This document shows, piece by piece, positions 12,000 to 61,683 of a stretch of 64,000 nucleotides of DNA. Source of the DNA: Alphaproteobacteria bacterium (GTDB taxonomy: Bacteria > Pseudomonadota > Alphaproteobacteria > JAJTHO01 > CANGYM01); NCBI GenBank assembly GCA_044372405.1, contig JBILRW010000001.1, positions 19,260 to 83,259 of the forward strand. Reading direction: 5' to 3'. Made by a program: the position numbers and the translations under genes. The notes below the pieces were generated by a model. The model made no database searches. It was not told the DNA's origin and saw nothing but the letters and a program-made list of their open reading frames with translations. How positions within the stretch are numbered: position 1 is the first letter of the stretch; the number at the start of each line of letters is the position of its first letter.

Positions 12000-13286
12000 A
12001 TGTCCGCCCCCAAACCACCCCGATTTGCTGTGGATCACAGCGTCACCCTTCGTCGGTTGGTGCTGGAGATTTACGGTGATGTCCTAAAACGCAAACAAAC
12101 GCTGGAGGACACCTGCGCCCAGCATCCCAGTTTCGCCCGCTACACCCCCCAAGATCGGGGCTTTGTCATGTTGCGCTTAAAAACCCTGTTTCGGTATCGG
12201 GGGGCGTTTATGGCCATGATTCGAGCATTTTCGCCCAAAACGACGGATCATGAGACCATTTTACATTTGGCCCTGACGGAGGCTCTGTGCCTGGATACGC
12301 CCGTATATGCCATTTCTCAGTGGGCCAAGGGGGCATCGAAACCCTACGCCCGGGGCTATGTCCATGCCCTGATCCAGCGGGCGGTGCGTTTGGGGGAGGG
12401 TTGGCGTGATCTTTATTTAACAGCCCAAACCCTGATGCCCACCTGGCTCTATGATCGGTTGAGCGTTCAGTATGACGAGGCCACGCTGGATGCTATGGCC
12501 CGGGTATGTTTAAGAATGCCGCCGCTGGACATCACGTTGGCGGCTCCTGGCGGGGTAGGGGAGGGGGGGGATCCCTTTCTGGTGCCCTGGTCGTACCGTT
12601 ATTCTGAGTCGCCGGCTGTGACGACACTTCCCGGGTATGACCAAGGATTGTGGTGGGTTCAGGATGTGGCGGCCAGTTTCCCCGTCATGGCCCTGGGCGA
12701 TGTAACGGGAAAAACCGTTTTGGATATGGGCGCGGCCCCGGGCGGAAAGACCATGCAGTTAGCGTCCCGGGGGGCGGCTGTCACTTCCCTGGATTATGCG
12801 CCGGATCGGATGAAACTGCTAAAGGAAAACCTGGGGCGAACGGGATTAACGGCGGAGGTTGTCTGCGCCGATGCCTTGACATGGAATCCGCCTCAGCTTT
12901 TCGATGCTGTGCTGCTGGATGCGCCGTGTTCGGCCACGGGGACGCTGCGCCGCCATCCGGAATTGCCGTGGATTCGGGATGGATCCCAGATCGGGGCGTT
13001 ACAGGCAGGGCAGGGGGCTTTGCTTCATCGCGCCCTGGATGCCGTTAAACCTGGCGGTAAGGTTGTATACGCTGTGTGCTCACTACTCAGGGAAGAAGGG
13101 CCCGATGTGATCCAGGCGTTTCTGGCGGGGCGGCCGGATTGCCTCTTGCAGCCCATAACAAACCAAGATAGCATGATCCCTGATTTTGCCCTGAAAGACG
13201 GCTATCTGCAGACCCATCCCCGTCAGGCTGCTGATGCGGGGGGTATGGATGGTTTTTTTGCGGCATGTCTTTTGAAAACATCCTGA
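12000..13286 (+). CDS. rsmB: 16S rRNA (cytosine967-C5)-methyltransferase (Sun/RsmB family)
   Basis: The SAM-binding motif DMGAAPGGKT, and the catalytic motifs DAPCSATG and PGG.VVY...CS. Confidence 0.85.
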   Translation: MSAPKPPRFAVDHSVTLRRLVLEIYGDVLKRKQTLEDTCAQHPSFARYTPQDRGFVMLRLKTLFRYRGAFMAMIRAFSPKTTDHETILHLALTEALCLDTPVYAISQWAKGASKPYARGYVHALIQRAVRLGEGWRDLYLTAQTLMPTWLYDRLSVQYDEATLDAMARVCLRMPPLDITLAAPGGVGEGGDPFLVPWSYRYSESPAVTTLPGYDQGLWWVQDVAASFPVMALGDVTGKTVLDMGAAPGGKTMQLASRGAAVTSLDYAPDRMKLLKENLGRTGLTAEVVCADALTWNPPQLFDAVLLDAPCSATGTLRRHPELPWIRDGSQIGALQAGQGALLHRALDAVKPGGKVVYAVCSLLREEGPDVIQAFLAGRPDCLLQPITNQDSMIPDFALKDGYLQTHPRQAADAGGMDGFFAACLLKTS

Positions 13287-13292
13287 TGATTT

Positions 13293-13964
13293 GTGATTGT
13301 GTGGTTTGTGATTGTGGTTCGTCTGGCGCCGTCTTTGTTATCCGCTGATTTTGCCAACCTGGCCCGGGATATTGCGGCGTTGGCGGCCGCGGGGGCGGAT
13401 TCTTTACACCTGGATGTGATGGATGGGCATTTTGTGCCCAATATGACCTTTGGCCCGCCGGTGATTGCGGCGCTGCGGCCCTTAACCTCGCTGCCGCTGG
13501 ATGCCCATTTGATGATCACAAATGCCGAAGAAACGGTGGAATCCTACATCGCTGCTGGTGTTAATCATATTACGGTCCACGCAGAGGCCTGCACGCATCT
13601 GGATCGTTTGCTTACGGTGATAAAATCTCGGGGAGTGACCGCGGGCGTGGCGCTGAATCCCGGGACATCGCCGGAGGTTTTACGGTATCTGCCCCAGGTG
13701 GATTTGGTGCTGGTGATGACGGTGAATCCGGGCTTTGGCGGGCAGAGTTTTCTGGAATCTCAAATGGAAAAAATCGCGTGGGTTCGGGATTTTCGCACCA
13801 AGAGGGGGCTGTCTTTTGATATTCAGGTTGACGGCGGCATTACGCATCAAAACATCGGCCGCGTGGTGGCCGCGGGGGCCGATGTGATTGTGGCGGGCAG
13901 TGCGGTTTTTAAGGGGGGAATCACCCAAATTCCCCACAATATCGCCCGGTTGCGCCATGGTTGA
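13293..13964 (+). CDS. rpe: Ribulose-phosphate 3-epimerase
   Basis: ...LAPSLLSADF...HLDVMDGHFVPN...MTVNPGFGGQ...DGGI.... The start is uncertain, because several in-frame GTG codons (13293-13314) follow the rsmB stop. Confidence 0.8.
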   Translation: MIVWFVIVVRLAPSLLSADFANLARDIAALAAAGADSLHLDVMDGHFVPNMTFGPPVIAALRPLTSLPLDAHLMITNAEETVESYIAAGVNHITVHAEACTHLDRLLTVIKSRGVTAGVALNPGTSPEVLRYLPQVDLVLVMTVNPGFGGQSFLESQMEKIAWVRDFRTKRGLSFDIQVDGGITHQNIGRVVAAGADVIVAGSAVFKGGITQIPHNIARLRHG

Positions 13965-15594
13965 GACGGTTCAGCACTTTGATGCCCACATTACGCTGCC
14001 GGATTTTGAGGTCAGCCCTGTGCGCGCGCATCTGATGCAATCGGCGTTGCACCTATCCCCGTATCGTTGGATGCTCCGGCGGGGGGGGATGCCGGAGGTT
14101 ATAGGCTCCCCCCCTGATTTATGGTCCGGGAGTGCTGAGGATGGCCAGGCCTTAATCGATGGCATTTACAAACTGCGCGGCCAGGATTTTGCGGTGGGGG
14201 CGTCCCCCTGGCGTCGCGGTGGGCTGCCGCTGGAGGCCTCAAATTTCATTTGGCTGCGGGATTTGCATGCGGTGGGGGGGGATGAGGCCCGTCAGGTGGC
14301 CCGCCGTTTGACAGAATCCTGGATGCGGGAACATTCGGGATTAACGGGGCTCCCTTGGAAGTCCTACATCGCGGCGGAGCGGGCCGTTCTGTGGCTGCAG
14401 CATTATTCTTTTTTTGCCGCCGGGTCCGATGAGGCGTTTCAAGAGTCCCTGAGTCAATTCCTGATTTTCCACCTTTACCGCCTGCGGGCCCATTATTATG
14501 CGCGGTATGCCGATGATGATCCTTTGCTGATGATCAAGGCCATGATGACCATCACAGGATGTCTGAAGGGATACGAAACCTGGTTTGAAACCCTGGAATC
14601 CTGCCTGGAGGAATACCTGTCCCAAAATGTTGATGAACGGTTCGAGGGTCGCCGCATGAGTCCCTCCGCCCAGTTGGAAACGGTAATTCATCTTTTGGAT
14701 ATCCGGCTGCTTTATCAGGCCAAAAAGCAGCGAGCCCCCGTGTATCTGAAAGACATGCTGTGCCAAATGGCGGCGGTGTTAAAGCGGGCCCAGATGGGGA
14801 CGGGGACCTTGCCGGCGTTTCATGCGACGCCGCGCTATGATCGTTCGTGGTTGCAAAGTTTGCTCACCATGGCGGGGCAGTCGTGCCAGGTGGTGCAGCC
14901 GTATCAGGGTCGTGTGATGGGGCTCGAAAAAATCGTTTGCAAAAATACCTGCGTCATTATGGATTGCCGCCTGCCCGAAACGGGCCAGCGGTATCATGCC
15001 AGCCCGCTGGCGTTTGAACTCAGCATCGGAAAAAATCTGCTGATCACCAACTGCGGCTATAGCGCCACGTTGTCGCCGGAATGGAAGCAGGGCCTGCGCG
15101 GCACGGCGGCCCACAGCACGCTGTCTATGGATGATGCCGATGCCTTTGATTACGGCGCCTCGGGGGAAAAGACCCTGTCCCGCATTGAAACGGACGTTTC
15201 CGAGGACACCGGCCGCATCACCTTAAAAGCCCGCCACGATGGGTATTTCGGCCGTTTTGGCGTGTTGCATGAACGCACGTTGACATTATCCCGCAACGGA
15301 GACCATCTCACGGGGCATGATGGGCTAAAGGGGGCCCAGGGTCATGCCTTTTGCGTGCGTTTTCACCTGCCCCCGCACATTCGGCCGCTGCTGGAGGCTG
15401 GGAAAAACCGCGTTTACCTGGATGCCGTCAACCAGGACATCTGGACCCTGACCTGTCCCGTCCTGCCCATTGCGCTGGAGGAAAGCGTCTTCATCGATAC
15501 CGAGGGCGCCATCCGCCCCACCACCCAAGTCGTCATCCGCGGCACCACCGGCGCCGGACAGACGGATATTCATTGGGTATTGCAGAAGGCGTGA
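13957..15594 (+). CDS. Heparinase II/III-family protein
   Basis: 546 aa, similar to the conserved alphaproteobacterial heparinase II/III-like proteins. The ATG overlaps the end of rpe. Confidence 0.6.
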   Translation: MVETVQHFDAHITLPDFEVSPVRAHLMQSALHLSPYRWMLRRGGMPEVIGSPPDLWSGSAEDGQALIDGIYKLRGQDFAVGASPWRRGGLPLEASNFIWLRDLHAVGGDEARQVARRLTESWMREHSGLTGLPWKSYIAAERAVLWLQHYSFFAAGSDEAFQESLSQFLIFHLYRLRAHYYARYADDDPLLMIKAMMTITGCLKGYETWFETLESCLEEYLSQNVDERFEGRRMSPSAQLETVIHLLDIRLLYQAKKQRAPVYLKDMLCQMAAVLKRAQMGTGTLPAFHATPRYDRSWLQSLLTMAGQSCQVVQPYQGRVMGLEKIVCKNTCVIMDCRLPETGQRYHASPLAFELSIGKNLLITNCGYSATLSPEWKQGLRGTAAHSTLSMDDADAFDYGASGEKTLSRIETDVSEDTGRITLKARHDGYFGRFGVLHERTLTLSRNGDHLTGHDGLKGAQGHAFCVRFHLPPHIRPLLEAGKNRVYLDAVNQDIWTLTCPVLPIALEESVFIDTEGAIRPTTQVVIRGTTGAGQTDIHWVLQKA

Positions 15595-15687
15595 GGGGGG
15601 ATTGATACGACAGGCAGTCCCTGTGATACTCGGGGGAAGGGGGGGGTGAAAAAGGCCTCTTATGCAAACGATGTAGATTGATAAGGG

Positions 15688-25013: not shown

Positions 25014-25628
25014 ATGCGTTCTGTTTTTTTTCTTTTTCTTTGTTTGGTGCTTGCGTCTTCGGGGGCTTGGGCAGAAACTTTTGATAAAAAACAAAGCATG
25101 GACTACATTGCTGGGTTGGCCAAAAAGGTGGTGGTGATTGCCAAGGAAGACACGGATAAAAAAATTCAGGATGAAAAGGTTGCAACGTTACTGAATGAAA
25201 ATTTAGCCTATGAACGCATCGCCCGTTTTGTTTTGGGCAAATATTGGCGTACGGCGCGTGAGGAACAAAAAAAAGAGTTTATTGATCTTTACGCAAAATC
25301 CCTTCGTCTGGCCTATTCCCGTCAGGTTTTGTCTGTGGATTTAAAGGATGTGGACGTTTATGACGCTCTCCTTTCGCCTCAGGGTGAGTTGGTGACCGTG
25401 AAAACAAAGGTGGTGGATCCCAATTCTGGGCAGCCTGTGGCCATTGACTGGCGTTTGCTTTCTTTTCCGGAAGGCTATAAAATTGTGGATGTACTCATTG
25501 AGGGCATCAGCGTGGCGTCGTCTCAGCGGTCTGAGTACGCGTCCATCATCCAACGTGGGGGGGGCAACGTCGAGGCTGTTTTGGCTAAGCTACGTCAGGA
25601 TACCCAGGCCGTCCCTGAAAATCAGTGA
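25014..25628 (+). CDS. mlaC: MlaC/Ttg2D phospholipid-binding periplasmic protein
   Basis: A signal peptide, and a toluene-tolerance Ttg2D-like sequence. Confidence 0.75.
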   Translation: MRSVFFLFLCLVLASSGAWAETFDKKQSMDYIAGLAKKVVVIAKEDTDKKIQDEKVATLLNENLAYERIARFVLGKYWRTAREEQKKEFIDLYAKSLRLAYSRQVLSVDLKDVDVYDALLSPQGELVTVKTKVVDPNSGQPVAIDWRLLSFPEGYKIVDVLIEGISVASSQRSEYASIIQRGGGNVEAVLAKLRQDTQAVPENQ

Positions 25629-35733: not shown

Positions 35734-37025
35734 ATCGCCGTTGTCCCTGGGGTTTTCCCCTAAGCCTGGTTTTGGGTTTATCGCTGTTTTTGGGGGCCTG
35801 CGCTTCGTCGGAGGAGCCGGAAAAAAAACATGAAGGCGAGCGCATTCCGGTTTTTGAGTCTCGTCAGGATACCTTAAAGACCGAGGAAGGGGCCCGTGTT
35901 TCGCTGCCCGATCCTTCAGATAAAACGTCATGGCCCATGGTGTCTGGCAATGCCACCCATGTCACGGGTCATGGGGCGTTGACCGATGTCCCCAAGCGTT
36001 TGTGGGATCGTGCTTTGGATGGTTTTGAAGCGGGAGACGAGGCAAGTCTCTCCCAACCCGTTGTGGACAATGGCCGTTTGATGGTCATGGATGCGGCTGC
36101 CACGGTTTTTGCCTTGGATTTGAAAACCGGCAACCCCCTGTGGAAGACCTCCTTGGCCCCTGAGGCCCAAATGGATGTCGTTTTAGAAGGTGGCGGGGTG
36201 GCCATTATGGGATCAACGGTGTTGGCCACAACGGCATATGGTGAAATTCTGGCGCTTAGCGCCGAAACGGGTGAGATTCTTTGGCGCCTGGCTTTGCCAG
36301 CGGCGGCAGCCTCTCCACCAACGCTTCAGGATAGTTATGCTTATTTGACCACAAAATCCAATCAAGTCGTGGCCGTTTCTGTGGCGTCTAAAACGATAGC
36401 TTGGGTTTATAGCGGTTTGCAGCAGTCAACGGGAATTGCGGGGGGGGCAGCTCCGGCGGTGTTTGATCAGACGGTGGTAGCGGCCCTTTCTTCGGGTGAG
36501 GTTGTGGCCATTCATAGGGATACAGGGCGGTCCTTATGGTTTGATACGTTGACAGAGGAAGCGACCCTGGGTCTTTCCGATATCATTGCGGATCCGGTTC
36601 TGGCCTATAATCTTGTTTTTGCTGCCCCTGTGGGGGGCGGGCATTTGACGGCGCTGAGTCTGGCCACGGGCGCCCGCGTTTGGCAGCATTCCTTGGGGCT
36701 TGTTTACCCCCCCGCTGTTGCGGGGAATGGACTTTTCCTGACAACTTCAGATCAAAAGGCGCTGGCCTTAACCTTAAAGGGCGAGGTTGTCTGGAAAGTC
36801 TCTCTTCCCATCGAAGAAGACCAAACGTGGTTTGGCCCCCTGCTTGCGGGATCCAAGGTTTTGGTGGTGAGCAACCGGGGCGATATTCAGGTCCTCAGCC
36901 CCTTTACGGGGGAAACGTTGGGCAGTTTGTCTTTGGGGAAGGACATTGCGGCGTCTCCCCTGATTGTGCAAAAAACCCTGTTTGTTCTTACAAAAGACGG
37001 CCGTGTTTTGGCCTATGGCTCCTGA
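35730..37025 (+). CDS. bamB: Outer membrane protein assembly factor BamB (PQQ-repeat beta-propeller lipoprotein)
   Basis: Lipobox LGAC, and repeated PQQ-like propeller blades. Confidence 0.8.
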   Translation: MNRRCPWGFPLSLVLGLSLFLGACASSEEPEKKHEGERIPVFESRQDTLKTEEGARVSLPDPSDKTSWPMVSGNATHVTGHGALTDVPKRLWDRALDGFEAGDEASLSQPVVDNGRLMVMDAAATVFALDLKTGNPLWKTSLAPEAQMDVVLEGGGVAIMGSTVLATTAYGEILALSAETGEILWRLALPAAAASPPTLQDSYAYLTTKSNQVVAVSVASKTIAWVYSGLQQSTGIAGGAAPAVFDQTVVAALSSGEVVAIHRDTGRSLWFDTLTEEATLGLSDIIADPVLAYNLVFAAPVGGGHLTALSLATGARVWQHSLGLVYPPAVAGNGLFLTTSDQKALALTLKGEVVWKVSLPIEEDQTWFGPLLAGSKVLVVSNRGDIQVLSPFTGETLGSLSLGKDIAASPLIVQKTLFVLTKDGRVLAYGS

Positions 37026-45361: not shown

Positions 45362-45910
45362 ATGGGACCTAAGCATTCTAGAACGGTGGGGCCCCTTGTG
45401 GCTTTGGTGGTGGTCATGGTGGGCCTGACCTTTGCCTCGGCCCCCCTTTACCGTTTGTTTTGTCAGGTGACGGGATTTGCGGGGACACCCAAAATCGGGG
45501 GCCAGCCGTCCTTTACCGAAACAGACGTTGCTCAAGACAAAAGTCGTGCCCTGACCATTCAATTTAATGCCGATGTCAGCCCCGATTTATCCTGGCAATT
45601 CCATCCGGATCAACGCGGTATATCTGTTCATGTGGGGCGTCCGTTTTTGATTTATTATGATGCTAAAAATATCGGGGATCGCCCCATAACAGGGACAGCG
45701 ACGTTTAATGTCACCCCCTTAAAAGTCGCGAAATACTTTCACAAAGTAGAATGTTTTTGTTTTAAAGAACAAATGATCAATCCCGGGGCGTCAAAAAAAT
45801 TTCCTGTGAGTTTTTATGTGGATCCCGCCCTGTTAAAAGATTCTTTTATGGATGATCTCACCACCATCACATTGTCCTATACCTTTTTTGAGAAAAAAAA
45901 GGGTTCATGA
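45362..45910 (+). CDS. ctaG: Cytochrome c oxidase assembly protein CtaG/Cox11
   Basis: An N-terminal TM helix and the CFCF copper-binding motif. Confidence 0.85.
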   Translation: MGPKHSRTVGPLVALVVVMVGLTFASAPLYRLFCQVTGFAGTPKIGGQPSFTETDVAQDKSRALTIQFNADVSPDLSWQFHPDQRGISVHVGRPFLIYYDAKNIGDRPITGTATFNVTPLKVAKYFHKVECFCFKEQMINPGASKKFPVSFYVDPALLKDSFMDDLTTITLSYTFFEKKKGS

Positions 45911-46384: not shown

Positions 46385-47170
46385 TTAGACCAACTCCCCC
46401 TCCCGCGCGATAATCCCCTCAACCTCCGCCACATCCCCGGGATGATCGATGGAGGCATGGGTTCGACCCCGGTAGTCCACCAAAACCACCTGAATGGGCA
46501 CGCCGGTTTCCAGCAGGCGCAGCTGTTCCAGCTGTTCCACCTGTTCCAGCGGCGTGGGGGGCGTTTCCAGCCAGGCTTTCAGGGCGCCTCGGCTGTATCC
46601 ATAAAGTCCAATGTGGCGATACACAGGCAAATCCCCAGAGGTTGGCACCGTGCGTAAAAAGGGAATGATCTGTTTGGAAAAATAAAGGGCGCGATGGTTT
46701 TGATCAAAGATCACCAGCGTCCCGCTGCTGGGCTTTGTTTTTTTGCTGTCTTGCAGGGCCTGGTACTGGGCCGTATTCAACTGAACGGCCGGCGTCACCA
46801 CGGGATAGGTCCCCAATTGATCCACCAGGGCCTGCATCACCCAGGGCGGCGTTAACACCGCATCCCCCTGAACATTCAGGGCGGAATCTACGGCAATGCC
46901 TTGGCTTTCCAGTGTTTTCAGGCCGGCCTCTACCCGCGCTGTGCCGTTTTCACAGGCGGGATCCGTCATGACCACCTGGCCCCCAAAGGCCCGCACGTGA
47001 TCCGCAATTCGCTCATCATCCGTGGCCACAACGCAATGCTGAACACCCGTGACCTGGGTGGCGCTGCGCCAGACGCGCTGAATCATGCTGACGCCGGCCA
47101 CGGGCACCAGGGGCTTTCCCGGGAATCGCTGGGATCCATAGCGGGCGGGAATGACAATGGCTTTAATCAT
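46385..47170 (-). CDS. kdsB: 3-deoxy-manno-octulosonate cytidylyltransferase
   Basis: [21 protein letters not shown].... Confidence 0.85.
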   Translation of the reverse strand: MIKAIVIPARYGSQRFPGKPLVPVAGVSMIQRVWRSATQVTGVQHCVVATDDERIADHVRAFGGQVVMTDPACENGTARVEAGLKTLESQGIAVDSALNVQGDAVLTPPWVMQALVDQLGTYPVVTPAVQLNTAQYQALQDSKKTKPSSGTLVIFDQNHRALYFSKQIIPFLRTVPTSGDLPVYRHIGLYGYSRGALKAWLETPPTPLEQVEQLEQLRLLETGVPIQVVLVDYRGRTHASIDHPGDVAEVEGIIAREGELV

Positions 47171-48739
47171 GGGGCAAAACCTCCGTAAGAACACAATTGT
47201 TAAAAATATCCAGGGCCTGGCGCAAGAGAGGATCGTCTTTCAGGCTTTCCCGTTGATCCAGGGCCTGATGCTGATAACGCTGGGCCAGCGTGGGGGCGGC
47301 TTCGGCGGTATCCTCGGTGATTATAACCTCCCACTCTGGCCCGCAAAGTTGGGCCACCAGGGATCGTAATGTGGGCAAAAGAGACTTTTGTTTGGTGTTT
47401 TTTAAGCTGACCCCCATTTTTCCCTGCCCATAATCGGTGATCACCCAATCATTCAGCAGCGCATCGGCCAAAAGGCCCTCTTTCCGGTCCCGTACAGCCG
47501 TGACAAAGGCATCAACATCCGGTGGCGGCGTTGGTTTTGGGGGACGAACAGGCGCGGGAGGGGGTGATAAAAACCCTATGAGGTCATCAGAACTTTTTTT
47601 TTTGAGTCTTCGGAAACCTCGGGGGCGCTCAGAACCTGAGAAACATAGCCCAGCCGGATAATCAGCATTTCCATGGCGCGTTCGGGATGGGGGCTCAGCG
47701 AGAGCTCACTTTGACCCTTTAGCAAAATTTGCCAGGCGCGGGTGAGGGTGGGCACCGACAGGCGTGGGCCGAAGGTTTCAAAAAAGGTGGCTTCTTGCTC
47801 GCTCATAACCTCCGCCTGGCGACAGGTGGCGCGGGAAAGTAAATGAACCAGACGCAGCATTTCCTCCAGCAACATCAGGGGGTCCATCCCTTTGGCATAA
47901 AGCCCCGCAAAGGCATCCAGGGCATCAGGCACCTCGCCCGCAAACAAGTGCCCCATCAAATTCAGCAGCGGCTGCGCATCGCACAGGCCCAGCATGTTTG
48001 TGACGAGATCCTCAGAAACACCGGCACTATCGGCCATGGCGATGGCCTGATCCAGCAAAGACAGACTGTCCCGCACGGACCCTTCCGCCGCATGGGCCAA
48101 CATCTGACTGGCCGAATCTGTGAGCGGGATCTCTTCTCTACCGGCAATGGTCTGTAAAAAGGGGGAAAGCACAGAAACGGGAACACGGGGCAAATCAATA
48201 CGTTGACAGCGGGACCGCACCGTCACGGGAATTTTATGCACATCCGTGGTGGCAAAAATAAACAAAACGCTGGGGGGCGGCTCTTCCAGGGTTTTCAGCA
48301 GCGCATTAAACGCATTGCGGGTGAGCATATGCACCTCATCCACAATATAAACCTTGGTCCGGCTGCGCATGGGGCGGTATTTGACGCTGTCAATCAGTTC
48401 CCGAATGTCATCCACGGACGTCCGACTGGCGGCATCCATTTCCAGGACATCCAGATGTTTATCGGCCAAAATATCCCGGCAATGCTCGCAAACCCCGCAC
48501 GGTTCCAGGGCGGGTTCGGTTCCCTGTCCATCGGGTCCAACACAGTTGACCGCCCGGGCCAAAATCCGCGCTGTTGTGGTTTTTCCCACCCCCCGAACGC
48601 CGGTTAATAAGACAGCGTGGGGAATCCGTTTTAACCGAATGGCATTTTGCAACAGGGTGACCAAAGCATCCTGTCCCACCAGATCGGCAAAAATCTGGGG
48701 CCGGTATTTTCGGGCCAAAACACGGTAAAAAGGTTCCAT
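47163..48739 (-). CDS. dnaX: DNA polymerase III subunits gamma/tau, encoded in two frames joined at an A10 tract (47594-47603)
   Basis: N-terminal ORF 47576-48739 (387 aa, Walker [10 protein letters not shown]) ends 5 codons after A10. The -1 frame then runs open through a Pro-rich linker ([15 protein letters not shown]) to a tau-like C-terminus (...[24 protein letters not shown]) ending at 47163. Confidence 0.7.
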
Positions 48740-48931
48740 ACTGTGCCCATTATGCCATACCTTGCGCCCCAGGCCAAGAAGAGAGTTGTCTCGAAGAGAG
48801 AAGAGAGTTGTCTCGCGCGTTCTTTAAAGCGTGTTCTTAAATCAGCAGGTCCTGCCTTTACAAGTCCTTCATTCTGTGGGACTAAAAGGGAGTCTCTGCC
48901 ACGTTCTAAAAAAAACCAAGGAGCCCCCATC

Positions 48932-49705
48932 ATGGCCAAGCAAAACCACCCCTATCATCTCGTGGACCCCAGTCCCTGGCCGTTGCTTTCTTCATGGGCG
49001 GCGGGTGGTCTGGCTGTGGGTGCCCTTTTGTTTTTCAAAGGAATCACGGCCTATGGCCTGTGGCTGGGCCTTTTTTTACTTTTGGCTTGTATGTACGGCT
49101 GGTGGCGCAGTGTGGTGAAGGAGGCCAATACCCCCGGCACCCACACGTCGGTGGTTCAAACGGGCCTTCGTTACGGCGTTGTGCTGTTTATTGCCTCTGA
49201 GGTCATGTTTTTTGTGGCGTTTTTCTGGGCTTATTTTAACGCCCGGTTGTTTCCTGTGGGGGGTGTCTGGCCGCCCGAGGGCATTGTTCCCCTGGATCCC
49301 ATGTCGTTGCCTTTTCTGAATACACTGATTTTACTTCTTTCCGGGACAACCGTCACCTGGGCGCATCATGCCCTGATTCACGGAGACCGCCAGGGATTGC
49401 GTCAGGGATTGCTCTATTCGGTTCTTTTGGGGGTTTTATTTTTGGGCCTTCAGGCCTATGAGTACACCCATGCCACGTTTGGGTTCCGTGACGGCATTTA
49501 TGCGTCAACGTTTTATATGGCCACGGGGTTTCACGGGTTTCACGTATTGATTGGGACGATTTTCTTGCTGGTCTGTTATTTGCGGGCGCGCTCGGGCCAC
49601 TTCACGGCAAAACATCATGTCGGGTTCGAGGCTGCGGCCTGGTACTGGCACTTTGTGGATGTCGTATGGTTATTTTTGTTTGTCTCGGTGTATTTGGGTG
49701 GTTAA
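48932..49705 (+). CDS. ctaE: Cytochrome c oxidase subunit III
   Basis: [17 protein letters not shown]... (COX3 N-terminus) and seven TM helices. A good RBS, AAGGAG, precedes it. Confidence 0.9.
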
Positions 49706-60167: not shown

Positions 60168-61568
60168 ATGCGTTATGTAAGCACGCGTGGCCTTGCGCCA
60201 ACATTATCGTTTTCTGAGGTTGTTTTTGCCGGCCTTGCCGAGGATGGCGGTCTTTATGTCCCCGAATCATACCCTGTTTTTTCCGGTGATGCCTGGCGAC
60301 GCCTTCAGGGAAGGCCCTATCGTGAGGTGGCCTTTCATATCATGAGGCCTTACATGTACGAGGCTTTTGGGGATGAGGAATTGCGGGGCATGATTGATCG
60401 GGCCTATGCCGGGTTTTCTCAGCCTGACAATATTGCGCCTTTGGTTCAGGTGGGGCCGCAGGATTGGATTCTCGAGTTATTTCACGGTCCAACGCTGGCG
60501 TTTAAGGACTATGCCATGCAGATGCTGGCGCAAGTGTTTGAGGGGCTTTTGAAAAAACAAAAGCGTCCCTTGACCATCGTGGGGGCAACATCGGGGGACA
60601 CCGGTTCGGCCGCTTTGCAGGCCTGTCGCTCAATTGAGGGGGCTAATGTTTTTATTTTGCATCCTCACGGACGTATATCCGACGTTCAGCGCAAACAAAT
60701 GACAACGGTGATTGCCCCGCATATTCATAACATTGCTTTGCAGGGAACCTTCGATGATTGCCAGACGTTTGTAAAGCAATTGTTTCAGGATCCACAGGCT
60801 CGAAATACCTGGGGGTTGACTGCGGTTAACTCTATCAATTGGGCACGTATTTTGCCCCAAGTTGTCTATTATGCCTATGCAGCCTTGGCATTGGGGGCGC
60901 CGGATCGAAATGTTTCCTTTTCTGTTCCTACAGGGAATTTTGGGAATATGTTTGCGTGCTTTGTGGCGCAAAAAATGGGCCTCCCTTTGGGAAAATGCGT
61001 TGTGGCCAGCAACAGAAACAATATCTTGACCCGATTTTTTCATACGGGGGTCATGGAAGCGCGGGAAGTAGAGCCCTCCGTCAGCCCAAGTATGGATATT
61101 CAAATTTCCAGTAATTTTGAGAGGATGCTGTTTGAACTTCAATTCAGAGACGCAACGATCGTGAAAAAACAAATGGATGATTTCAAAAAAACAGGAAGAT
61201 TTTCGGTTGATTCGGCTGTTCTGACCGATTTTCATACTAAGTTTGACGCTTTCGATATAAGTGACTCTGAAACCACCAATATGATTTCGGTTATGGAACA
61301 AAAAAGGGGATATGTGTGCGATCCGCATACATCCGTAGGTTGCGCTTCTGGACATCAGTGGCGTCTTGGGGGGGGCGAAGGACCTATGGTTGCATTGGCA
61401 TGTGCTCACCCGTCAAAGTTTATGGATGTTGTGGAGCAGGCGACTGGGTATTCCCCAATGATACCCAATCGTCTTAAGGCAACACTTTTGGCACCAGAAA
61501 AGGTTAATGTTTTGCCCAATAATTTTAGCGTTATTCGTGACTTTATTGTTTCAAAAAGCAGCAAATGA
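60168..61568 (+). CDS. thrC: Threonine synthase
   Basis: MRYVSTRG..., the PLP lysine motif FKDY, and GATSGDTGSA. Confidence 0.9.
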   Translation: MRYVSTRGLAPTLSFSEVVFAGLAEDGGLYVPESYPVFSGDAWRRLQGRPYREVAFHIMRPYMYEAFGDEELRGMIDRAYAGFSQPDNIAPLVQVGPQDWILELFHGPTLAFKDYAMQMLAQVFEGLLKKQKRPLTIVGATSGDTGSAALQACRSIEGANVFILHPHGRISDVQRKQMTTVIAPHIHNIALQGTFDDCQTFVKQLFQDPQARNTWGLTAVNSINWARILPQVVYYAYAALALGAPDRNVSFSVPTGNFGNMFACFVAQKMGLPLGKCVVASNRNNILTRFFHTGVMEAREVEPSVSPSMDIQISSNFERMLFELQFRDATIVKKQMDDFKKTGRFSVDSAVLTDFHTKFDAFDISDSETTNMISVMEQKRGYVCDPHTSVGCASGHQWRLGGGEGPMVALACAHPSKFMDVVEQATGYSPMIPNRLKATLLAPEKVNVLPNNFSVIRDFIVSKSSK

Positions 61569-61683
61569 AGAGGAGCAATTTTATTGTTAGCCTCTTGTTC
61601 GCAATGAAAAAGTAATAGTCTTTGTCGTATAGTGTAAGGGTGTGTTCGGACGATAAAAACTGGTTTTTTTTTAAAGCTGCTGT

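Follow-up and report, generated by a model that had tools for sequence, protein, structure and literature searches.

A dnaX gene split at a conserved A10 run in an alphaproteobacterial clade, a likely recoding site for the tau subunit

Results

We examined a 64,000-nucleotide (nt) stretch of the genome of Alphaproteobacteria bacterium (GCA_044372405.1, JBILRW010000001.1, positions 19,260–83,259; hereafter the window), in which dnaX, the gene for the gamma and tau subunits of DNA polymerase III, lies on the minus strand with its start codon (ATG) at position 48739 and is divided between two reading frames at a run of ten adenines (A10). The sense strand at the junction reads GAC TCA AAA AAA AAA GTT CTG ATG ACC TCA TAG, and the run itself (47594–47603; T10 on the plus strand) is the longest homopolymer within the 64-kb window. 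An initial annotation of this stretch had described the junction accurately: the open reading frame (ORF) in the 0 frame, 387 amino acids (aa) long, stops five codons past the run; the −1 frame stays open at length (143 codons to the TAA at 47163–47165, where about 145 had been estimated); and the +1 frame reads K-F-stop, ending at the TGA at 47587–47589. The locus comprises the following features.

47576–48739, minus strand: dnaX 0-frame ORF, gamma-type, 387 aa, with AAA+ domains I–III and ending KKKVLMTS-stop (Pfam and alignment to Escherichia coli DnaX)
47594–47603, minus strand: slippery run A10 (TC-A AAA AAA AAA-G), the putative recoding site; phase and all-A composition invariant in seven other lineages
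47576–47578, minus strand: 0-frame stop TAG, five codons past the run; in all lineages the 0-frame stop lies 1–5 codons past the run
47587–47589, minus strand: +1-frame stop TGA (frame K-F-TGA), two codons past the run; in all lineages the +1 stop lies within 2–3 codons
47163–47594, minus strand: −1-frame continuation, 143 codons plus TAA (47163–47165), encoding a Pro-rich linker and then the PF12362 tau C-terminal domain (Pfam, ratio of non-synonymous to synonymous substitution rates (dN/dS), fused-protein alignment)
46385–47170, minus strand: kdsB-like cytidylyltransferase gene, whose start, the ATG at 47168–47170, lies in an 8-nt overlap with the tau-frame stop (ATGATTAA) (gene call)

The locus belongs to the DnaX family, with both the clamp-loader domains I–III and the alphaproteobacterial tau C-terminal extension present. 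Pfam assigned the 0-frame product to PF13177 (E = 3.7e-41), PF22608 (the lid; E = 1.9e-15) and PF12169 (domain III; E = 2.8e-32), and it aligns at E = 2.7e-82 with the clamp-loader core of E. coli DnaX as crystallised (8giy_B, residues 3–374). The −1-frame tail, whose end had been thought to resemble a tau C-terminus, does match PF12362 (‘DNA polymerase III gamma and tau subunits C terminal’; score 47.4 bits, threshold 30.2, E = 2.7e-12). The run falls in the linker, approximately ten residues past domain III, the region in which gamma and tau part in E. coli and Thermus too. Joined conceptually, the two parts form a protein of 525 aa that aligns end to end with five full-length alphaproteobacterial tau proteins at 45–48% identity, a comparison with related tau sequences that the initial annotation had proposed as a check. 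The split of dnaX at the A10 run is thus confirmed, as is the earlier description of its consequence: the 0 frame gives a gamma-like product, and tau needs either a change to the −1 frame or one extra A in the messenger RNA (mRNA).

Among all homopolymers of at least 7 bases in the window, the dnaX run is the only one at which a scan found a switch between two long open frames, so that the split is neither a chance event nor the sign of an error-prone assembly. Neighbouring genes (ctaD, ctaG, ogt, kdsB, ctaE, SURF1, sucA, ileS and a SNF2 helicase gene) are intact, and we accordingly rejected a genome that is decaying or generally prone to homopolymer errors. The same scan flagged an A8 run at 45893–45900, which we rejected as a split gene; it is where ctaG (Cox11) ends and an ogt-like methyltransferase gene begins in overlap (ATGA, 45893–45910), the two being adjacent but unrelated genes.

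The split is conserved in phase across a clade

A search of 5.8 billion protein clusters with the fused protein placed seven clusters closest to it (100, 96, 83, 83, 83, 79 and 68% identity), all of them 379–392 aa long and covering only the N-terminal 73% of the query; all seven short proteins end KKKV(LMTS) despite a diverged linker just upstream. More distant homologues (no more than 55% identical in the N-terminal region) were, in every case, full-length tau proteins of 530–640 aa with PF12362, and no fused form of the clade’s gene was found among the clusters at >55% identity. The membership of the close clusters amounts to >140 sequences, all short (the members listed reach at most 392 aa), with 24 of 24 further distinct members ending exactly KKKV..., never KK or KKKK. 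Searching with the tail alone returned four stand-alone PF12362 ORFs of 113–132 aa and no fused protein.

The DNA of seven relatives (L001–L007; N-terminal protein identity 68–96%), drawn from independent ENA, JGI and Logan assemblies, carries the same arrangement. All seven read NNA AAA AAA AAA GTN at the junction, and in each the run closes in phase 0 relative to the N-terminal ORF; the run in L002 counts as A11 only because its preceding codon is GAA, and the phase is unchanged. Each has a 0-frame stop 1–5 codons past the run, a +1 stop within 2–3 codons and a −1 frame that is open for 130–145 codons and encodes PF12362. A metagenome pattern scan for run-length variants gave a single match (L088), also A10. 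Synonymous sites are near or at saturation for most pairs of relatives, and the flanking sequence has diverged to saturation with the run unchanged across lineages. Among the matches listed in a scan of GTDB genomes, 0 of 80 more distant alphaproteobacterial dnaX loci (at most 55% identity) had a split or an A-run of at least 8.

The 18 nt immediately 3′ of the run (GTYCTGATGMCMTYNTAR, 47576–47593, and the homologous positions in L002–L007) are unusually conserved for a linker. This segment can be read three ways, as VLMTS-stop in the 0 frame, as the TGA stop in the +1 frame and as SSDDLI in the −1 frame, and several of the substitutions in the region are synonymous, leaving the 0-frame residues unchanged.

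These comparisons bear directly on whether the split exists in the organisms at all. The initial annotation had offered a homopolymer error, with a true run of A11, as its alternative, and some sequencing platforms do miscall runs like A10; an assembly error, or a true A8, would be variants of this idea, or dnaX could be a recent pseudogene with a truncated product. However, the same phase recurs in eight further contigs (L001–L007 and L088, from different studies and assemblers) and in >140 database sequences, with no in-frame variant and no fused form at >55% identity. The run is constant between saturated flanks, the tail evolves at a dN/dS of ~0.2, and dnaX is the only gene in the window interrupted at a homopolymer. 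An artefact or a decayed gene is therefore extremely improbable, and on these comparisons we regard errors of sequencing, a generally faulty assembly and genome decay as excluded for practical purposes. Variation at the DNA level would be a different matter: long homopolymers are hypermutable in DNA, and replication slippage could toggle the run between A10 and A11 in populations, turning tau on and off. Yet tau is essential in studied bacteria, so that the OFF state would be lethal, and all recovered consensus sequences are in the gamma phase, with no ON-phase allele in the databases searched. We give such phase variation hardly any weight.

The tau tail is probably read as a continuation from the run

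Pairwise dN/dS in the −1 frame of the tail is 0.16–0.31, compared with 0.06–0.12 for the N-terminal part (dS 0.28–1.8, with comparisons to L001 saturated), and the other two frames of the tail contain 5–14 stops; this pattern of substitution indicates that the tail is under purifying selection. The Pro-rich linker varies in length among lineages, always by whole codons, and the residues directly past the run are conserved (SSDDL or SPDDL). Upstream of the run the −1 frame is closed within 5–37 codons, and the change of frame is therefore confined to a narrow stretch with the run at its centre.

A conserved tail could also be a protein of its own. Under such a scheme the gene would have undergone fission, and a PF12362 domain translated independently, by re-initiation or coupling past the 0-frame stop, would act in trans with the N-terminal clamp-loader ORF; gene callers do predict PF12362 as an ORF of its own in all the relatives, and some lineages have a GTG or TTG in the linker. 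In the window and in L001, however, none of the start codons ATG, GTG and TTG occurs after the run until the conserved KEGLLAD core has been reached; the earliest candidate there, a TTG, already lies within the domain, and the candidate starts of the other lineages have no conserved position. Furthermore, the −1 frame is open back to the run in every lineage despite the linker indels, the first residues past the run are conserved, and the role of tau in E. coli DNA polymerase III is to join clamp loader, polymerase and helicase by a covalent link. We rejected independent initiation of the tail on the grounds that no start is conserved and that neither the window nor L001 has one ahead of the domain core; this evidence makes a tail protein with its own start unlikely, and the scheme of two polypeptides acting in trans as a whole is very improbable.

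Sequence signals at the run

In E. coli, tau is encoded in the 0 frame of dnaX and gamma is made by −1 ribosomal frameshifting at A_AAA_AAG, with an upstream Shine–Dalgarno element and a downstream hairpin. We searched for stimulators of this type (a downstream hairpin, an upstream hairpin and a Shine–Dalgarno-like element) and found nothing conserved. The 70 nt 3′ of the run fold no better than shuffled sequences in 7 of 7 lineages (z from −0.6 to +1.9), no hairpin that could form in the nascent RNA just upstream of the run is conserved (z from −1.1 to +1.0), and the junction alignment revealed no Shine–Dalgarno-like element conserved at a fixed distance. An Rfam scan of the window detected no RNA family beyond three tRNAs: there was no rRNA, and the site matched no known RNA element.

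The run itself is more constrained than its coding role would suggest. The codon preceding the three lysines is TCA, CCA, GCA, GAA or ATA, and thus has A in third position throughout, even though this base is the least frequent there in the genome (15%); all three lysine codons are AAA in every lineage, although AAA accounts for 70% of lysine codons. Two overlapping in-phase heptamers A_AAA_AAA (the X_XXY_YYZ pattern) are present in every lineage, and A_AAA_AAG is not in phase, the G past the run being the first base of the next codon. Because all ten A’s are conserved and a heptamer needs only seven, this composition clearly points to selection on the full run length rather than on the heptamer.

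Long runs are otherwise scarce in the window. From length 4 to 8, the number of A/T runs decays by a factor of 0.42 per base and then collapses: ~15 runs of at least 9 would be expected and 2 were observed (Poisson P ~ 3e-5), the dnaX A10 being the only coding one. Baranov et al. (2005, PMC1088944) explained a cut-off of runs near nine by selection against slippage during transcription. The other A/T run of at least 9 is a noncoding T9 at 61664–61672, and there are 21 runs of exactly 8; a spectrum of this shape suggests genome-wide counter-selection of runs of at least 9.

Programmed transcriptional slippage as the probable source of tau

We consider it likely that the run is a functional and conserved dnaX recoding site, at which a gamma-type subunit is templated and tau arises only through a −1 shift, most plausibly by programmed transcriptional slippage. 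Slippage is favoured because stimulators of ribosomal frameshifting are lacking, the full run length is selected, the non-tau frames stop at once, long runs are depleted and there is precedent for it. Under this model, the DNA-templated frame would give only the gamma-type clamp-loader subunit (domains I–III), and tau, which adds the linker and the C-terminal domain, would be made only on a move to the −1 frame at A10. In characterised systems, this C-terminal extension of tau tethers the polymerase and the helicase. RNA polymerase would stutter on the T10 template to give mRNAs with runs of A8 to A14; those with A11 (and also A8 or A14) would yield tau by normal translation, and those with A10, A9, A12 and A13 would yield gamma-like products ending in VLMTS-stop or F-stop. 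Specifically, A10 transcripts would encode gamma ending KKKVLMTS, and A9 and A12 transcripts gamma-like proteins ending K(K)KKF. That every non-tau transcript should give a gamma-like product follows from the stops within 2–5 codons in both non-tau frames; these frames close almost at once in every lineage, a feature to be expected where, as in Thermus, transcripts with runs of different lengths are translated. A minor contribution of −1 ribosomal slippage on A_AAA_AAA may add to the tau pool, with an identical protein. The sequences themselves demonstrate the split and its conservation, the selection on the tail and on the full length of the run, and the lack of frameshift stimulators and of an internal start; the RNA-level slippage event and the tau:gamma ratio are what we infer from these features.

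Ribosomal frameshifting could also be the main mechanism, with ribosomes slipping on A_AAA_AAA into the tau frame and unshifted ribosomes stopping five codons on to give gamma, which would be the E. coli mechanism with its outcome reversed. The two overlapping heptamers are in the correct phase in every lineage, the resulting tau would be the same as that from an A11 transcript, and the review of Atkins et al. (2016, PMC5009743) states that reversed dnaX tau ‘seems’ to derive from ribosomal frameshifting, citing a Chlorobium candidate with E. coli-like stimulators. At the present locus and its relatives, however, seven lineages have neither a conserved Shine–Dalgarno-like element at the right spacing nor a downstream structure, and A_AAA_AAA is much less shift-prone than A_AAA_AAG in E. 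coli (PMC5009743). A heptamer would need 7 A’s, yet conservation extends to all 10, among them the third (wobble) position of a preceding codon that itself varies, and the conserved near-immediate +1 stop is unneeded for a pure −1 shift but expected if there are several mRNA lengths. Ribosomal frameshifting as the principal source of tau thus seems unlikely, though less so than any other alternative to transcriptional slippage.

Several points weigh against transcriptional slippage. Homopolymers of G/C likewise stop at 8, and this limit could be due in part to slippage of DNA replication or to the way the sequence was assembled, and not to transcription. Depending on the clade’s tRNA-Lys set and its modifications, a −1 ribosomal shift on the in-phase A_AAA_AAA could contribute or even be the main route. 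The lineages have a common ancestry, so that probabilities calculated from conservation of the run are not fully independent, and a second copy of dnaX may lie elsewhere in the genome, beyond the 64-kb window.

Discussion

Comparison with known systems

The mechanism that we propose is not new; the window holds a new lineage of a published arrangement. The inverted polarity relative to E. coli, which the initial annotation had recognised, was treated there as unusual, and that part does not stand: Antonov et al. (2013, NAR 41:6514, PMC3711429) had already described a reversed, two-ORF dnaX in 17 genes of 12 genera, unannotated in RefSeq, 12 of them with poly-A runs and nine with exactly A10. 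That study attributes the arrangement to transcriptional realignment (GeneTack cluster COF_239165634), and its Figure S3 includes Chlorobium (two species), Prosthecochloris, Pelodictyon, Flavobacterium (two species), Cytophaga, Capnocytophaga and Coraliomargarita, each with G directly after the run and a TGA or TAA close by. Atkins et al. 2016 (PMC5009743) and Sharma et al. 2014 repeat the point. As in the cases detailed by Antonov et al., the ORFs in the window are adjacent and related by a −1 shift, with tau recoded and gamma templated; A10 is followed by G and a stop a few codons on; the split is unannotated in public records; and the position and direction of the frame transition are conserved among related genomes (here, seven further lineages and >140 sequences). 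Unlike those cases, which belong to the Chlorobi, Bacteroidetes and Verrucomicrobia as far as the paper specifies them, the present ones form an alphaproteobacterial clade in which the tau tail is the alpha-specific PF12362. We found no alphaproteobacterial reversed dnaX in the literature searched, nor among the cases named by Antonov et al., in whose account five of the 17 genes are unnamed. Because the intervening alphaproteobacterial dnaX genes are unsplit (80 loci among the matches listed), the arrangement in this uncultured alphaproteobacterial clade probably had an independent, convergent origin rather than being shared by descent.

Among other systems, dnaX of Thermus thermophilus offers a mechanistic analogue. 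It carries an A9 run, tau is templated in frame, and gamma results from experimentally proven transcriptional slippage (Larsen et al. 2000, PNAS 97:1683, as summarised in PMC1088944; PMC5009743). The two genes share a long A-run at the boundary of domain III and the linker with stops close by in both non-tau frames, and the sense-strand run here, at A10, lies within the range of A/T runs of at least 9 associated with slippage of the Thermus type. They differ in that the run is A10 rather than A9 and in that gamma, not tau, occupies the templated frame, tau needing the slip. The comparison with the Thermus A9 tract drawn in the initial annotation therefore holds for the mechanism and fails for the polarity, since tau is in frame in Thermus and slippage there makes gamma (PMC1088944, PMC5009743). 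With E. coli dnaX, the locus shares a site just past domain III, a slippery tract of lysine codons and two products with a common N-terminus; unlike in E. coli, there is no in-phase AAG, neither stimulator is present and the outcome is reversed.

Within the Alphaproteobacteria, gamma of Caulobacter crescentus is produced through partial proteolysis of DnaX by ClpXP (Vass & Chien 2013, as cited in bioRxiv 10.1101/2022.11.10.516041). Both proteins have the tau domain layout with a PF12362-type C-terminus, and both would exist in two forms (for the window, a prediction from sequence); however, gamma in Caulobacter is made post-translationally from an uninterrupted gene, whereas here gamma is templated and tau would be recoded. 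Restoration of a longer product by transcriptional frameshifting on poly-A/T is also known for tssM of Citrobacter rodentium and mxiE of Shigella (PMC4256274, PMC1088944). In those genes, as proposed here, the longer functional product needs a non-templated base at a homopolymer and both length variants are made; in contrast to those accessory virulence genes, it is an essential subunit of the replisome that would depend on the slip in the present case, at a site conserved across a deep clade.

Implications for genome interpretation and replisome composition

If tau is recoded as we propose, an essential replication protein of this clade is unreadable from the genome by standard decoding. Public annotation in the clade consists of a short ‘DNA polymerase III subunit gamma/tau’ (the NCBI label) and an unrelated-looking hypothetical protein with PF12362, and the split gene will be misread in completeness estimates of metagenome-assembled genomes, in pseudogene counts and in comparative studies of DnaX. 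An alphaproteobacterial lineage would also join the small set of bacteria that recode tau rather than gamma. That the same design (A10, G and a nearby stop) occurs in the Chlorobi, Bacteroidetes and Verrucomicrobia strengthens the case that both forms of DnaX are under selection, this being a fourth lineage with its own route to them, and its recurrence strengthens the view of A10 as a preferred solution.

A bolder reading, which we think improbable as a whole, is that the A10 switch arose independently and replaced a Caulobacter-type proteolytic route to gamma, with the tau:gamma ratio, and thereby the composition of the replisome, set by the frequency of RNA polymerase slippage and tunable by nucleotide pools or growth conditions. 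The independent origin in this reading is supported fairly well by the sequence comparisons; the regulatory part is pure speculation. If it were true, the run would be a tunable regulator and not a fixed 1:1 device.

Neighbouring genes and other homopolymers

A kdsB-like gene follows the tail ORF in the relatives as well as in the window. The same 8-nt overlap between the two is present in the gene calls for 5 of the 6 relatives whose sequence reaches that point (L002–L004, L006 and L007), and L001 has a 4-nt gap instead. Translation of the kdsB-like gene may be coupled to ribosomes reading the recoded tau frame, in which case its expression would be linked to slippage. This dnaX–kdsB linkage is kept across the clade, and the upstream neighbour of dnaX varies: it is ctaE/COX3 in the window and in L004, rpoA-rplQ in L007, a PRA-CH (hisI-like) gene in L001 and DUF1294 in L002. 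In the window, dnaX and kdsB sit inside a cytochrome c oxidase gene neighbourhood (compared region 46385–49705).

Among the G/C runs of the window, eight are exactly 8 bases long, compared with 13 of length 7, and none is longer, the 8-mers exceeding the number predicted from the decay at shorter lengths. Seven are G8 (12563–12570, 14081–14088, 14274–14281, 15639–15646, 25557–25564, 36440–36447 and 61368–61375) and one is C8 (9952–9959). Three of these runs read GGGGGGGGAT, and two lie within a single ORF (13888–15594).

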